Shown here piece by piece: positions 25,225 through 30,361 of a stretch of 64,000 nucleotides of DNA. Within the stretch, counting starts at the first letter, position 1. Every line of letters starts with the position of its first letter. The stretch comes from Aquificaceae bacterium. Its GTDB lineage: Bacteria > Aquificota > Aquificia > Aquificales > Aquificaceae. The translations under genes were made by a program, and so were the position numbers. The DNA lies in assembly GCA_037925075.1 (NCBI GenBank), contig JAXSNR010000001.1:384001-448000 (forward strand), written 5' to 3'. Under the pieces are notes generated by a model. It searched no databases. It saw only the letters and a list, made by a program, of their open reading frames with translations, and was not told the DNA's origin.

Positions 25225-26081
25225 AGCAATCCTTCCTCCTTCTTCCTGTTTATAACCTCCTCTGCTTGAGGTGAGGCATATTCAAAGAAGGTAAACCTCT
25301 CCTTGTCCCTTTGCCTCATCTCATCAAGAGCATCATCTGAATTTAGCCCTATCTCAAGTATGCATGGAGTATAGAGATGTACATAGGTGGGTCCCACCTC
25401 TCTTGCCACGTATATGGCTTTCTTAATAACCGTTTCCACCCTCTTGGGAGAAGACACGGTAAGCCTTGCCACATAGTGGCATCCTGAATCTATGGCGAGT
25501 TGCCACATGGGAACCTTATCCCACTGTTTACCCTTTGGTGCCATCTTAAAGACATGACCTTTCACAGTAAGACCGCTTTCCTGACCGCCTGTATTGGCAT
25601 AAACCTCGTTGTCAAAGCATATGGTGGTTATCTTCTCTTGCCTGAAAAAGGACTGAAGCGTGCAATCAAGACCTATATCAACGGTAGCACCATCTCCTGC
25701 GAGCACTACCACATCCTTTACCTTGTCGGGAAACCTCCACTCAAGCACCCTTTTAATGCCAGAAGCCACCGCATTCTGATTTCCAAAAAGGGAATGGACC
25801 GTATGAAGGGCTATGTGGGGGAAGACCAAGGAGGTGCAACCCGTAGAGTTTATTATTATGGTGTCCTCTGGGTTTGGCAAAGAGGCAAGGATGTACCTAA
25901 GAGCCATAGACTCTGGGCATCCTGCACATAGAGAGTGCTCCTCTATAAGCTCCTTTGAATAAGGGAGGTCCATAACGCCTCTTTTGGGATTGCCCCAAGT
26001 GGCTTTGAACTGCAGGTCCCTTATCTCCTGAGGCATAACATCCAAAAGTTCCTCGTTTATTTCATAGATCTTATATGACAT
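25221..26081 (-). CDS. porB: 2-oxoacid (pyruvate):ferredoxin oxidoreductase beta subunit
   Basis: HSLCAGC, TGC, TPP motif GDGATVDIG..DNEVYANTGGQ. Confidence 0.9.
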   Translation of the reverse strand: MSYKIYEINEELLDVMPQEIRDLQFKATWGNPKRGVMDLPYSKELIEEHSLCAGCPESMALRYILASLPNPEDTIIINSTGCTSLVFPHIALHTVHSLFGNQNAVASGIKRVLEWRFPDKVKDVVVLAGDGATVDIGLDCTLQSFFRQEKITTICFDNEVYANTGGQESGLTVKGHVFKMAPKGKQWDKVPMWQLAIDSGCHYVARLTVSSPKRVETVIKKAIYVAREVGPTYVHLYTPCILEIGLNSDDALDEMRQRDKERFTFFEYASPQAEEVINRKKEEGLL

Positions 26082-27276
26082 GCTTTACCTCCTTTCCTGT
26101 AAGCTTGATAACTTCCCTTGCTATAACCTCCGCTGGCATGGTCATACCACCAGCTACCCTTGGTGCACCTATAACTTCCGCATCTGAATGACCATATAGA
26201 TACCTTCTTACTTCTCTTTCAAGCCATCCCACCACGTTAAACTCAGGCACAAATATATACTTTGCGTTTTTAACCGCTTGCCTAAGTTCCTCTATGGGGA
26301 AGGGTCTAATAGTTTTTAGCTTTACCACCCTTGCTTTTATGCCCTCCTCTTCAAGAAGCCTGACCGCCTCCTTTGATTGAGCTGATGCAGTACCACACGC
26401 CACAAAGACAATGTCAGCTTCTGGGTCTCCAAACTCTTCTATAAGACCTCTAAGGTAGTGTTTGGCGTAGGGTCTTGACCTTTCAATGGCGGATCTCACC
26501 TCCCACTGCCAACTGGCATGAGTTGCATAGGATATGTAGTTGGACTTCATCACGAATGGGTCTCTAAGAAACCTTCCCGGTGGCACCTCCGCATCTATAA
26601 CAGGCATGGGTGCCCTGTAGGGATTGTAGGGTGGTAGGGCTATATCATCGGGTGGTAGCATTATGGCTTCCCTTGTGTGTGAGACAAAAAAGCCGTCTAT
26701 GGCTGTTATAACCGGCACATGTACATCTGGCTGTTCCGCCACCACAAAGCCTGCCAGTATCATATCAAAAAGGTCTTGAGCGGTTTCCGCATACCATATC
26801 ATGCAACCAGTATCAAGCAAAAAGCCCACTTCAAGGTTGTCTGGCTGAATAGTAAGGGGGGCGTTTACACCCCTTGCCATCAAAACCAACTGCACCGGTA
26901 TCCTTGTACCAGCCCACATGGGAAAGTTTTCAAAAGCCCTCAGAGTTCCGGGTCCTGATGTGGTGGTTATTGTCCTTGCACCAGCCATAGCACAACCTGC
27001 AACCTCAGACATAACGCCAAACTCTGACTCACCTCTAAAATATACACCCACATACCCTTCTACCCAAAGCTCTCCAATAAGGTGTGCCGCCTCTGACTGT
27101 GGAGTTATAGGGTAGGAAACAGACGCATCTACAGAGGCTCTCTTAACCGCCTCCTTTACAGCCTCGGAACCAGTCATAAAGTGCTTGGTTCTGGGAGCCT
27201 CAAAAAGAAGATAGTCGGGCGAGACCACCTTTTGCCCTGCCCTGTTGTATATACAAGTCTCGGTAGCGGTTTGCAT
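26071..27276 (-). CDS. porA: 2-oxoacid (pyruvate):ferredoxin oxidoreductase alpha subunit
   Basis: YPITPQSE, ESEFG, TTTSGPG, DGFFVSH, IRPFP; E-D-A-B-G order matches the five-subunit por cluster. Confidence 0.9.
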   Translation of the reverse strand: MQTATETCIYNRAGQKVVSPDYLLFEAPRTKHFMTGSEAVKEAVKRASVDASVSYPITPQSEAAHLIGELWVEGYVGVYFRGESEFGVMSEVAGCAMAGARTITTTSGPGTLRAFENFPMWAGTRIPVQLVLMARGVNAPLTIQPDNLEVGFLLDTGCMIWYAETAQDLFDMILAGFVVAEQPDVHVPVITAIDGFFVSHTREAIMLPPDDIALPPYNPYRAPMPVIDAEVPPGRFLRDPFVMKSNYISYATHASWQWEVRSAIERSRPYAKHYLRGLIEEFGDPEADIVFVACGTASAQSKEAVRLLEEEGIKARVVKLKTIRPFPIEELRQAVKNAKYIFVPEFNVVGWLEREVRRYLYGHSDAEVIGAPRVAGGMTMPAEVIAREVIKLTGKEVKHVI

Positions 27277-27341
27277 AGCCTTACCTCCTTAAAGGTTTGT
27301 TTTAAATTTATAAAAAGCCCACATAAATAAGCTGATTTTTA

Positions 27342-27887
27342 TCACTGGAAAAGCTCCTCCAGTTCTACGCATAGCCCTTCAATAAGTTTTGAGCAAGCCT
27401 TGCCCTTTTCACAAGCAAAGGAGAAAGCCTTGTATTTACCCTCCTCCAAGGTAAGCACCTCAACAATCTTTAATTCTGGAAGCACAAGCCAATACTCCCT
27501 CACGCCATAACTTGCGTATAGCTCCTTCTTTTCCTCCGTGTCCCTTTTATAGGAAAGGGAAGAAACGACCTCCACCACAAGGTCTGGAGCTCCAAAGACG
27601 CCTTTATCTTGCACTATGGACAGGTTTTCCTTTAGTACCACCACAAGGTCAGGTTGGAGAACATCTTTATCTGAGAGCACCACATCTATGGGAGCGTAAA
27701 AAACCTTGCCAAGTGAGCTATCCACTACACTATGGTAGAACTTCACGTATAATCTTCCCGATATTTCCTGATGCCTTACACTCGGTGCGGGCATTTCAAC
27801 GAGCCCCCCTTGGATTATCTCATACCTTTTCTCGTCCTCTATCTTTAGGTATTCTTCATAACTCCAAAGCTTTTCTTGGGTTTTCAT
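27342..27887 (-). CDS. Uma2/DUF820 family endonuclease (copy 4); start corrected to ATG at 27887
   Basis: RYEIIQG.LVEMPAP..HQ, QPDL, PDLVVEVVS, YASYGVREYWLV; ATGA overlap with the porD stop. Confidence 0.9.
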   Translation of the reverse strand: MKTQEKLWSYEEYLKIEDEKRYEIIQGGLVEMPAPSVRHQEISGRLYVKFYHSVVDSSLGKVFYAPIDVVLSDKDVLQPDLVVVLKENLSIVQDKGVFGAPDLVVEVVSSLSYKRDTEEKKELYASYGVREYWLVLPELKIVEVLTLEEGKYKAFSFACEKGKACSKLIEGLCVELEELFQ

Positions 27888-28453
27888 CTTCCAAGCTCCC
27901 TTTTTACCTCTTCCGCAATCTTTATAAACTTTTCCATCTCCTCTACGTGCTGGTCTCTGAGGGTTATCATGGCATCCTCGTGTCCTGCCATACCGCACAT
28001 GGCTATTGTAAAGCAATCGGTTTCAGCCCTTATTATCTTTAAAGCAACGTTGGCATAATGACAATGAACACCCACAAATATACAAGCCTTTATCTTGTTA
28101 TGCCATATGGTTAGGTTTGGGTGGTTAGGGTTTATCTCAACCGCCGGGTTTATTTTGGGATACTTGGGCCTATAGTCGTACATGGGAATTATCTTTGCAC
28201 CAAGGACTTCCGCCATCTTTTTAACGAGCCTTGCCTTTTCCTTTGCCTCTTCATTCCAAGCGTAGAGTACCTGAGGACCCGGGAATATGGTGGGGTTGTC
28301 TCTTGTGAGCATAGCCTTTGCCGCCTCTTTCATGGCTGTCTCTTCATCCACTATTTCGTTGAACATAAGAGCCTTACCCGGTGGTGGGTTTAAAACACCC
28401 TCATAAACCGCCACAGGATAGGGTGAAAAGCCTGACGGTCCAAGTGTTGCCAT
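27884..28453 (-). CDS. porD: Five-subunit 2-oxoacid:ferredoxin oxidoreductase delta subunit
   Basis: NPTIFPGP, MYDYRPKYPKI, EINPNHPNLTIWHNKI, GVHCHYAN. Confidence 0.82.
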   Translation of the reverse strand: MATLGPSGFSPYPVAVYEGVLNPPPGKALMFNEIVDEETAMKEAAKAMLTRDNPTIFPGPQVLYAWNEEAKEKARLVKKMAEVLGAKIIPMYDYRPKYPKINPAVEINPNHPNLTIWHNKIKACIFVGVHCHYANVALKIIRAETDCFTIAMCGMAGHEDAMITLRDQHVEEMEKFIKIAEEVKRELGR

Positions 28454-28464
28454 AATCTACCTCC

Positions 28465-29025
28465 TTAGAAAATTTCTTCCAAGTTTATGCAAAATCCTTC
28501 AAGTATGCTTGAACAAACTTTACCCTTTTCAAAAGCATAAGAGAAGACCTCATACCCACCTTCTTTTAAAACAAGTACTTCCACCACCTTTTCCTCTGGA
28601 AACACAAGCCAGTACTCTTTTATGCCATGCTTAGCATAGAGCTTTCTCTTGTCTTCTGTGTCCTTTTTAAATGTTGAAGGTGAAACCACTTCCACCACAA
28701 GGTCCGGAGAATCAAAGATGCCCCTGTCTTTTGCTATAGATAGTCTGTCCTTTGAAATATACACTATATCAGGCTGGACAATATTCTCATCAGATAGAAC
28801 CACATCCACAGGAGCAAGGTAGAAGTCTCCGCAGTTTGTGGCTTCCTGAAACCTTCTAAAGGCATAGGCAAGATTCCAAATTACCTTTTGATGTTTCAAG
28901 CTTGGTGCTGGCATTTCAAGAAGCTCCCCGTTGATTATTTCATACCTTTTTTCATCCTCAAGCTGTAGGTAGTCTTCATAAGTCCAAGGCTTTTCCTTTA
29001 ATACGATCGCCATACCTTGCCTCAT
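28465..29025 (-). CDS. Uma2/DUF820 family endonuclease (copy 3)
   Basis: RYEIINGELLEMPAP, QPDI, PDLVVEVVSPS, GIKEYWLV; ATGA overlap (alternative start 29013). Confidence 0.9.
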   Translation of the reverse strand: MRQGMAIVLKEKPWTYEDYLQLEDEKRYEIINGELLEMPAPSLKHQKVIWNLAYAFRRFQEATNCGDFYLAPVDVVLSDENIVQPDIVYISKDRLSIAKDRGIFDSPDLVVEVVSPSTFKKDTEDKRKLYAKHGIKEYWLVFPEEKVVEVLVLKEGGYEVFSYAFEKGKVCSSILEGFCINLEEIF

Positions 29026-29585
29026 GAAAAAACCTCTTCCAAATTTATGCAAAATCCTTCAAGTACGCTTGAACAAACTTTGCCCTTTTCAAAGGCGTAA
29101 GAAAAGACTTCATATTCACCTTCTTTTAAAACAAGTACTTCCACCACCTTTTCCTCTGGGAACACAAGCCAGTACTCTTTTATGCCATGCTTGGCGTAGA
29201 GTTTTCTCTTGTCTTCTGTGTCTTTTTTGAAGGTAGAAGGTGAAACCACTTCCACCACAAGGTCCGGAGAACCAAAGATGCCCCTTTCCTTGAGTATGGA
29301 GTAGTTTTCTTCAAAAACCACCACAAGGTCAGGCTGAAAAACCACATCCTCAGATAAAACCACATCAACCGGTGATATGTAAACTTCACCTCCACGCTGG
29401 CTTTCCATGAAAGTGGATAAAAGTTTATATAGCTTTCCTGCTATTTTTTGATGTTTCAAGCTTGGTGCGGGCATTTCAAGAAGCTCCCCGTTGATTATTT
29501 CGTACCCTTTTTCCTCTTCAAGCTGTAGGTAGTCTTCATAAGTCCAAGGCTTTTCCTTTAATGCGGTTGCCACGCTATGCCTCAT
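29022..29585 (-). CDS. Uma2/DUF820 family endonuclease (copy 2)
   Basis: Same motifs; ATGA overlap with the copy 1 stop. Confidence 0.9.
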   Translation of the reverse strand: MRHSVATALKEKPWTYEDYLQLEEEKGYEIINGELLEMPAPSLKHQKIAGKLYKLLSTFMESQRGGEVYISPVDVVLSEDVVFQPDLVVVFEENYSILKERGIFGSPDLVVEVVSPSTFKKDTEDKRKLYAKHGIKEYWLVFPEEKVVEVLVLKEGEYEVFSYAFEKGKVCSSVLEGFCINLEEVFS

Positions 29586-30127
29586 GAAAAGACCTCTTCC
29601 AAGTTTATGCAAAAGCCCTCAAGTAGCTTTGAGCAAACTTTGCCCTTCTCAAAGGCGTAAGAAAAGACCTCGTACTCACCTTCTTTTAAAACAAGCACTT
29701 CCACCACCTTTTCCTCTGGAAACACAAGCCAGTACTCTTTTATGCCATGCTTGGCGTAGAGTTTTCTCTTGTCTTCTGTGTCTTTTTTGAAGGTAGAAGG
29801 TGAAACCACTTCCACCACAAGGTCCGGAGAACCAAAGATGCCCCTTTCCTTGAGTATGGAGTAGTTTTCTTCAAAAACCACCACAAGGTCAGGCTGAAAA
29901 ACCACATCCTCATATAAAACCACATCAACCGGTGAAAAATACACCTTGCCAATACCCTTGCCCATAACATGCTGAACAAACATTAGGCTTAGATTTCTCA
30001 AAACTTCCTGATGTTTCAAGCTTGGTGCTGGCATTTCAAGAAGCTCCCCGTTGATTATTTCGTACCTTTTTTCATCCTCAAGCTGTAGATAGTCTTCATA
30101 AGTCCAAGGCTTTTCCTTTACTACCAT
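29582..30127 (-). CDS. Uma2/DUF820 family endonuclease (copy 1)
   Basis: Same motifs; starts 3 nt after the ferredoxin-subunit stop. Confidence 0.9.
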   Translation of the reverse strand: MVVKEKPWTYEDYLQLEDEKRYEIINGELLEMPAPSLKHQEVLRNLSLMFVQHVMGKGIGKVYFSPVDVVLYEDVVFQPDLVVVFEENYSILKERGIFGSPDLVVEVVSPSTFKKDTEDKRKLYAKHGIKEYWLVFPEEKVVEVLVLKEGEYEVFSYAFEKGKVCSKLLEGFCINLEEVFS

Positions 30128-30130
30128 ACC

Positions 30131-30361
30131 TTACTTCTCCACATGTACCTCCGGCATGACCATGTGGATTGCATTTCTCTTTAGAAGATTTACGCAAACA
30201 TAAACACATAGAGCACAGCCCTTACACCGCTCCTGAACTACAAAGGCGTGATGCTCCTCATCCGTGTACATTAGGGTGTTAGGCTCGGGGCAGAATAGGG
30301 TACACTGCTTGCAGTTGTACTTGCTACATTCTTCGTTGATTACCTCCGCCACATAGTACAT
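30131..30361 (-). CDS. porE: [4Fe-4S] ferredoxin-like epsilon subunit of the oxidoreductase
   Basis: CSKYNCKQCTLFCP and CKGCALCVYVC; first gene of the E-D-A-B-G cluster. Confidence 0.82.
   Translation of the reverse strand: MYYVAEVINEECSKYNCKQCTLFCPEPNTLMYTDEEHHAFVVQERCKGCALCVYVCVNLLKRNAIHMVMPEVHVEK

Follow-up and report, generated by a model that had tools for sequence, protein, structure and literature searches.

Uma2 (DUF820) is a large protein family whose function has stayed unexplained for twenty years. The accessible text of PMC551604 defines the Uma2/DUF820/COG4636/TT1808 family and its active site, finds no link to methyltransferases, notes some tandem copies, proposes selfish spread, and puts the family at more than 2% of the genes in Gloeobacter. 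In the accessible part of PMC2701414, Uma2 is a likely solo toxin that forms cassettes of paralogs, and the available portions of PMC3424549, PMC9403480, PMC1274311, PMC4963859, PMC8136920, and PMC13485200 address distribution and expression only, including a DUF820 gene within a hox operon (PMC4963859). For a codon-optimized Microcystis Uma2 that was cloned in E. coli, the accessible text makes no mention of toxicity (PMC11855584).

In the Rpn system, as described in the available text of 10.1101/2023.05.02.539157, a PD-(D/E)XK nuclease is bound and blocked, via a variable dimer helix, by a short product made from within its own gene; the specificity is cognate, the genes form tandem arrays, and one member restricts phages. 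The same text cites Cas11d, made within cas10d, as a precedent, and Koonin posed the generality of the Rpn antitoxin-within-toxin design as a question (PMC10400984). Another point of reference is the movement of target recognition domains (TRDs), or DoMo, in Type I/IIG restriction-modification specificity genes (accessible part of PMC3077401). Tandem Uma2 paralogs and the selfish or solo-toxin ideas are already known; new in the locus described here are the cassette-limited divergence, the predicted dimer code, and the putative internal start, none of which was found for Uma2 in a literature search that had most subscription journals outside its coverage.

Uma2 array in an oxidoreductase operon

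Within the window (the whole 64,000-nt stretch of DNA analyzed), a minus-strand 2-oxoacid:ferredoxin oxidoreductase operon carries four Uma2 genes at two sites. At site A, copies A1-A3 are placed between the genes for a ferredoxin-like subunit (porE) and a PF02552 protein (porD); at site B, a single copy, B1, is placed between porD and the alpha subunit gene (porA). Judging from gene order rather than alignment, B1 appears to be the positional counterpart of A. aeolicus aq_1194.

30131..30361, minus strand: porE (name used here), 4Fe-4S subunit of the 2-oxoacid:ferredoxin oxidoreductase operon, upstream of the array
29582..30127, minus strand: Uma2 copy A1, full-length form, 181 aa; His39, Asp80, Glu106, and Lys120 intact
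29022..29573, minus strand: Uma2 copy A2, 183 aa; putative GTG start
28465..29013, minus strand: Uma2 copy A3, 182 aa
27884..28453, minus strand: porD (name used here), PF02552 protein between both array sites
27342..27887, minus strand: Uma2 copy B1, 181 aa, flanked by porD and porA, its start overlapping the stop of porD
26071..27276, minus strand: porA, oxidoreductase alpha subunit, downstream

All four copies belong to Uma2 (PF05685), with scores of 108-126 bits against a curated cut-off of 27, and the structure model matches 6OKH (TM 0.93) and 9Y1L (Z 24.1, rmsd 1.5, 149 aligned residues), which identifies the PD-(D/E)XK fold. The H-PD-EXX-K residues are present in every copy, the catalytic labels used here being assigned by match to the motif of PMC551604. 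In Pfam searches of each copy, Uma2 was the sole family, with no match to an Rpn/YhgA-like domain; NCBIfam has no family for A1, the ESM Atlas gave no usable match outside PF05685, and the fold matches included no close relative with bound nucleic acid. At 50% identity, 17,875 clusters match the query at E up to 0.001. Profiles of PADLOC PDC-S03 match all four copies (best profile E 2e-45 to 8e-44); this is a candidate label, for which no description was found in the literature, and at most a hint of a defense role. The flanking genes encode oxidoreductase subunits and an S41 peptidase.

The genome of the window (G000), Aquificaceae-like judging from the named relatives that match it best, contains 16 Uma2 matches. 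A second triplet (G000:C2:46161-47722; period about 511 nt) belongs to a distant subfamily and has an equal mosaic with cassette indels; Asn replaces the conserved His, and one of its cassette types recurs at C2:599841-600374. Two copies are broken, one by a frameshift where the cassette ends (C2:628057-628610) and the other by an internal stop (C1:4120-4692). Single genes at C1:171250-171882, C1:376130-376804, and C2:595668-596222 are wedged, with overlapping starts and stops, between neighbors that appear, by eye, to form housekeeping operons.

The sequence-only reading of this stretch had described a 560-nt period with near-identical flanks around unrelated cassettes of equal length, and this description holds. 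Three copies are spaced 560 nt apart, a single nucleotide of 215 differs between 29161-29375 and 29721-29935, and the 72-nt cassettes are alike at 29, 27, and 30 of 72 nt, with no gaps and with the translations that had been given. A further divergent stretch in A3, at about residues 70-95, had not been reported. The absence of indels in the cassette is confirmed among the window copies and does not extend to related arrays, where gap columns occur in 17 of 38 neighboring pairs. In the search for each cassette elsewhere in the genome that had been proposed, each of the four matched only itself at length, and no donor cassettes were found. The four neighboring copies differ almost exclusively in a patch of probable self-pairing.

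29936..30007, minus strand: cassette of A1, residues 41-64; code E41/K61, R44/S47
29376..29447, minus strand: cassette of A2; code K41/E61, G44/Y47
28816..28887, minus strand: cassette of A3; code K41/D61, W44/A47; type also in G012, G022, and G074
27696..27767, minus strand: cassette of B1; code E41/K61, G44/Y47; type also in G012, G022, G042, and G074
28722..28800, minus strand: second divergent stretch of A3, about residues 70-95; borders approximate; residues 92-97 in the predicted interface

An assembly collapse or chimera, a concern raised with the original description, is very improbable. Near-identical flanks invite collapse, and no run contig among the matches listed spans the whole array. 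However, contigs from public runs (four of eight listed runs were compared, with 232 pieces beyond the listing) contain each cassette with its adjoining flank, letter for letter (exact matches X1 28682-28915, X2 29323-29488, X2 29883-30061, X7 29723-30076, and X1/X2 27200-28439; the best-matching run may be the source sample itself), synonymous differences are scattered between the copies, and an equivalent architecture is present in the related single-contig genomes G012 and G022.

Cassette exchange among related arrays

Of 38 neighboring pairs in related Uma2 arrays, which represent four subfamilies and exclude two non-tandem pairs, 35 show the mosaic. It was also seen in 19 of 30 pairs taken from WOR-3, Chloroflexota, Bacteroidota, and Nitrospirae (seven judged by one flank). 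Within arrays, copies of the same cassette type are rare: types differ in 68 of 71 pairs and are shared in only 3. In the set of 19 related genomes, wherever the operon could be viewed, site A holds 0-2 copies and site B holds 1-2.

In trees of 31 copies, the flanks cluster by genome or site, and the cassettes cluster by type across species. Congruence of the two trees, which had been named as part of what would count against the exchange, was not found: in AU tests, the cassette tree failed on the flank data (p=1e-60), and the flank tree failed on the cassette data (p=2.9e-6; 31 copies). In several genomes, the points of exchange lie at codons 41 and 64-65. The tree conflict, the shared borders, and the generality of the pattern bear out the proposed recombination through conserved flanks.

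Between different-type neighbors within a genome, pS and pN are 0.25 and 0.02 in the flanks and 0.86 and 0.49 in the cassette. Same-type cassettes of G000 and other species give 0.75 and 0.13 (pN/pS 0.18), against 0.62 and 0.11 for the flanks and a pS of 0.58-0.66, i.e., about 0.6, for porD (pS and pN are uncorrected proportions from seven non-independent pairs each). Because of this contrast, we infer that the flanks are being overwritten by conversion while old cassette types are kept under purifying selection. The cassette had been called hypervariable and the array a diversifying repertoire; the first term is misleading and rapid diversification does not fit, given that same-type cassettes of other species evolve at the flank rate and that the types are old and conserved across species. 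Hypermutation or ongoing positive selection in the cassette is ruled out by the same-type pN/pS.

Several arrays among the relatives merit separate mention. In G042 (L047, on C101), pairs are identical over cassette and core at both array sites, reflecting either recent whole-gene conversion or assembly collapse. Two loci with no site-A copies (L056:4575-4680 and L057:4190-4308) have porE-porD spacers 70-90 nt longer than those of relatives, possibly scars of lost copies. The Chloroflexota arrays L128 and L142, with five or six Uma2 genes, combine varied helices with C-terminal flanks that share about 90% of their sequence.

The cassette as a predicted pairing surface

In the structure model (pLDDT 95.9), the cassette lies on a helix (residues 37-57) and a strand (60-64). 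A two-copy prediction scored 0.43, compared to 0.01 for the best of three controls; this is only just over the dimer mark of 0.42, a mark that 20 of 30 solved pairs attain, as does 1 of 23 single chains, and the score may reflect solved Uma2 structures. The runs of the dimer model agree in at least 91% of contacts, with pLDDT of at least 83. The predicted dimer is two-fold, with helix residues of one chain against strand residues of the other, and its interface comprises residues 34-38, 40-41, 44, 47-48, 51, 61-68, and 92-97. The dimer is predicted with good confidence, and the cassette coincides with its two-fold interface.

Covariation, part of which was present in the alignment fed to the model, gives a compatible picture. 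Residues 41 and 61 carry opposite charges in all 26 doubly charged types among 45 (defined from 84 of 91 copies, 7 distant copies being dropped) and in 70 of 74 cases in a broad set of 50%-identity representatives (153 of 161 domains). By mutual information in the 153 domains, the pair 41/61 ranks first, 44/47 third, and 44/64 fifth. Side-chain volumes at 44 and 47 anticorrelate in 44 Aquificaceae types (rho -0.63) and weakly in the broad set (-0.16). The 41-61 contact appears to be inter-chain, the separation of the two residues within one chain being judged from secondary structure. Residues 45 and 55, which share one helix at a distance of ten residues and are not part of the predicted interface, covary in both charge and size, which perhaps points to a second interface or another dimer geometry.

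These charge and size pairs point to partner specificity. The cassette would be inherited as a single block with sharp borders because its surface must complement itself. The four copies of the window use all four combinations of the 41/61 and 44/47 switches, and because these combinations all differ, all six mixed pairs clash on a crude rule. Across genomes, selection for extra insulation among co-resident copies was considered and rejected: 51 of 66 co-resident pairs are mismatched versus 739 of 957 pairs of types from different genomes, i.e., no excess (G012_B1 was dropped for a gap at 47).

This lack of excess is what would be expected if there were no adaptive repertoire at all and the paralogs were selfish or nearly neutral, with flanks converted and the cassette sheltered by interface epistasis and low homology. 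The patchy copy number (0 to 27 Uma2 matches per genome), the identical duplicates in G042, and the selfish spread proposed in the accessible text of PMC551604 agree with such a scenario. Nevertheless, we regard it as improbable, considering that types persist across species at a porD synonymous difference of about 0.6 under purifying selection, that arrays nearly always combine different types, and that selection on an internal start across phyla (see below) needs a function.

It had also been proposed that the cassette is a DNA-target module akin to a TRD. The exchange through flanks and the conservation of types across species are compatible with a cassette that determines which DNA or RNA is targeted, whether directly or via dimer geometry; moreover, type-specific residues also occur outside the interface (for example at 45, 52, and 55-59), the helix starts at the predicted active-site His39, and A1 and A2 are nearly one protein outside the cassette, so that any functional difference must lie within it. 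The positions most divergent between array neighbors, however, include 41, 44, 47, 48, 51, 61, and 63, which belong to the modeled interface and covary with one another, although 52 and 56 are equally divergent and lie outside it. At 24 residues, the cassette is far smaller than a TRD, and target specificity would leave the internal start unexplained. No methyltransferase is encoded among the neighboring genes scanned, nor is one linked to the family in the accessible part of the PMC551604 survey. With a predicted homodimer interface and self-complementary charge and size pairs, a TRD-like role is unlikely, and an effect of the cassette on substrate choice is possible as a secondary one.

Ten proteins (P0002, P0003, P0008, P0011, P0014, P0027, P0028, P0034, P0060, and P0119) consist of two fused Uma2 domains with different cassettes and represent natural linked pairs; some of the first domains lack the conserved His.

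Putative internal starts and a possible Rpn-like lock

Each copy in the window contains a putative ribosome-binding site (RBS) followed by an in-frame start near codon 32, a feature that the sequence-only reading had missed.

30032..30049, minus strand: putative internal RBS (GGGGAG) and ATG32 of A1; short form 29582-30034, 150 aa; sequence signal only
29472..29489, minus strand: putative internal RBS and ATG of A2; short form 150 aa
28912..28929, minus strand: putative internal RBS and ATG of A3; short form 149 aa
27792..27809, minus strand: putative internal RBS (GGGGGG, with Gly in place of Glu28) and ATG of B1; short form 150 aa

Among 91 Aquificaceae copies, the codon eight or nine positions before the conserved His is ATG in 84, GTG or TTG in 4, ACG or ATA in 2, and absent in 1. 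Upstream of it, Gly27 is encoded by GGA or GGG in 78 of 89 copies, versus 36% at other Gly codons of these genes, and Glu28 by GAG in 74 of 82, versus 51% elsewhere. The Met32 subfamily mostly has GGG GAG and the Met31 subfamily GGA GAG, with the spacing staying at 8-9 nt; WOR-3 copies mostly have GGG AGG and an ATG in 25 of 25.

The signal extends to many phyla. When each locus is represented by a single gene, an ATG, GTG, or TTG lies within codons 29-33 in 80 of 81 loci, whereas control windows give 7, 17, 49, and 27 of 81 (of two further loci that were dropped, one has the region absent and one was mis-anchored; a single locus is cyanobacterial). Beyond Aquificaceae, WOR-3, and Bacteroidota/Chlorobi (39 loci), the Gly27 codon is GGA or GGG in 36 of 38 (17.2 expected; control Gly 136 of 312 versus 137.8 expected), and Val31 is GTG in 12 of 12 (3.8 expected), whereas Val adjoining an existing ATG is GTG in 2 of 14 (3.2 expected). 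Bacteroidota/Chlorobi keep the start in 18 of 19 loci, at codon 29-30 in the Bacteroidota clade, with Val30 as GTG in 8 of 9 (3.3 expected), but show no Gly27 bias (8 of 15 versus 5.8 expected; Gly lost in four). These lineages seldom use Shine-Dalgarno sites, and a start retained without the Gly27 bias fits this weak use. Independence among the loci is incomplete, and a few from Aquificaceae may be present in more than one set, which makes P values too favorable. A duplex-energy test with an assumed 16S tail was positive in Aquificaceae (17 of 17) and WOR-3 (24 of 25) only; Chloroflexota gave 10 of 21. In all three window copies scored (A3 was left out), the internal sites are at least as strong as the upstream ones.

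From these codon patterns, the internal start at about codon 32 is under selection, and a short form (S) is very probably translated from it. An internal promoter was considered as well: promoter-like matches precede the internal start in A1-A3, but 6 sites versus 4.9 expected is chance level. Phage-borne decoy short forms received no support, with one full-length locus in IMG/VR and one phage record.

The predicted S (149-150 aa) lacks the N-terminal subdomain and retains the predicted catalytic residues His39, Asp80, Glu106, and Lys120. Solved chains of 151-153 residues (9Y1L and 1WDJ chain B) have the core ordered without this subdomain: neither chain of 9Y1L shows order before about residue 36, just past its Met, and those of 1WDJ have 186 and 152 ordered residues. 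Disorder would explain these shortened chains equally well. A Bacillus plasmid gene (L170:956-1444) lacks the N-terminal subdomain altogether and might be a stand-alone short form, like stand-alone RpnS.

The retained catalytic residues, the unequal chains of 1WDJ, the Bacillus gene, and the Cas11d precedent would all be compatible with S being the active form, the N-terminal subdomain acting as a lid, or with S being required as a partner of the full-length nuclease (L) in an L:S complex. This is a minority prospect in our assessment: conserved residues in the subdomain (Arg21 in 109 of 147 and Glu23 in 120 of 147) suggest that it contributes to function, and with internal sites as strong as or stronger than the upstream ones (three of three), a constitutive uninhibited nuclease would be costly.

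By a narrow balance of probability, we favor an Rpn-like lock, in which the short form binds its own full-length nuclease through a copy-specific interface. The proposal builds on the mosaic, the tree conflict, the purifying selection within types, the covariation, and the internal-start selection, all established at the level of sequence. Each Uma2 gene would be a gene within a gene, encoding the PD-(D/E)XK nuclease L and, from about codon 32, an S that drops the conserved N-terminal subdomain and retains the core and the cassette. The cassette would serve as a self-complementary two-fold pairing surface, such that S pairs with its own L and mostly not with those of its neighbors. By analogy with RpnS and RpnL, S may act as a dominant-negative inhibitor of L, an assignment only slightly likelier than its negation: S would occupy L via the cassette, and L:L dimers would be released once S is lost or a trigger competes. 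The flanks would be kept alike by tandem duplication and gene conversion, while distinct cassettes keep the copies separately keyed. Crossovers inside the cassette would break helix-strand complementarity and be purged, and therefore whole 72-nt blocks would be transmitted and old types would persist.

The array with its hidden second starts suggests a self-contained toxin-antitoxin or defense switch. Each copy would be an independently locked toxin, plausibly for abortive phage defense; a defense role of the array is possible and somewhat doubtful. Several points weigh against the lock reading: the array sits in a metabolic operon, not a defense island; S, unlike RpnS, keeps all four residues predicted to be catalytic; aq_1194 of A. 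aeolicus was hardly seen by proteomics; the accessible text on the cloned Microcystis gene mentions no toxicity; identical duplicates occur in G042; co-resident types show no excess of mismatches; the duplex-energy signal is confined to Aquificaceae and WOR-3; the dimer score only just passes its mark; and the 45/55 covariation lies outside the predicted interface.

If the internal start is real, cloned native genes would co-express their own inhibitor, which could explain why the accessible papers report no Uma2 activity. More broadly, and quite tentatively, this broad clade of the Uma2 family could be a second, much larger class of gene-within-gene toxin-antitoxin or anti-phage systems. In such a system, a near-full-length internal product would lock its own nuclease via a dimer code of 24 residues that recombines, and each tandem array would be a set of locks with independent keys, maintained because phage triggers or mimics drive an arms race. 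If true, this would answer the question of Koonin (PMC10400984) on the generality of the Rpn design. The cassettes would also provide a natural library of mutually distinct homodimer interfaces on a single scaffold, and the family-wide internal-start signal makes the long-standing Uma2 puzzle directly testable by silencing the internal start.

Compared with described systems, the copies share the Pfam family, fold, motif, and tandem paralogs with Uma2 (PF05685; PDB 6OKH, 9Y1L, 3OT2, and 1WDJ). In DoMo, as given in the accessible part of PMC3077401, a variable segment likewise moves by recombination in conserved flanks; a TRD, however, is a whole DNA-reading domain tied to a methyltransferase, whereas the Uma2 cassette has 24 residues and is a predicted protein-protein interface. 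With Rpn, Uma2 shares the PD-(D/E)XK nuclease, patchy spread, tandem arrays, an internal start with an RBS, and a variable helix at the dimer interface that the long and the short form each contain, the Uma2 interface being predicted for L:L. RpnS is a small C-terminal helical domain that varies by 4-residue repeats; in contrast, the Uma2 short form would comprise 83% of the protein, keep the catalytic core, and vary by substitution in a recombining cassette. Rpn function was demonstrated experimentally (available text of 10.1101/2023.05.02.539157; PMC10400984), whereas that of Uma2 is only proposed here. The array consists of members of Uma2, not of Rpn, most plausibly with an Rpn-like mode of working.
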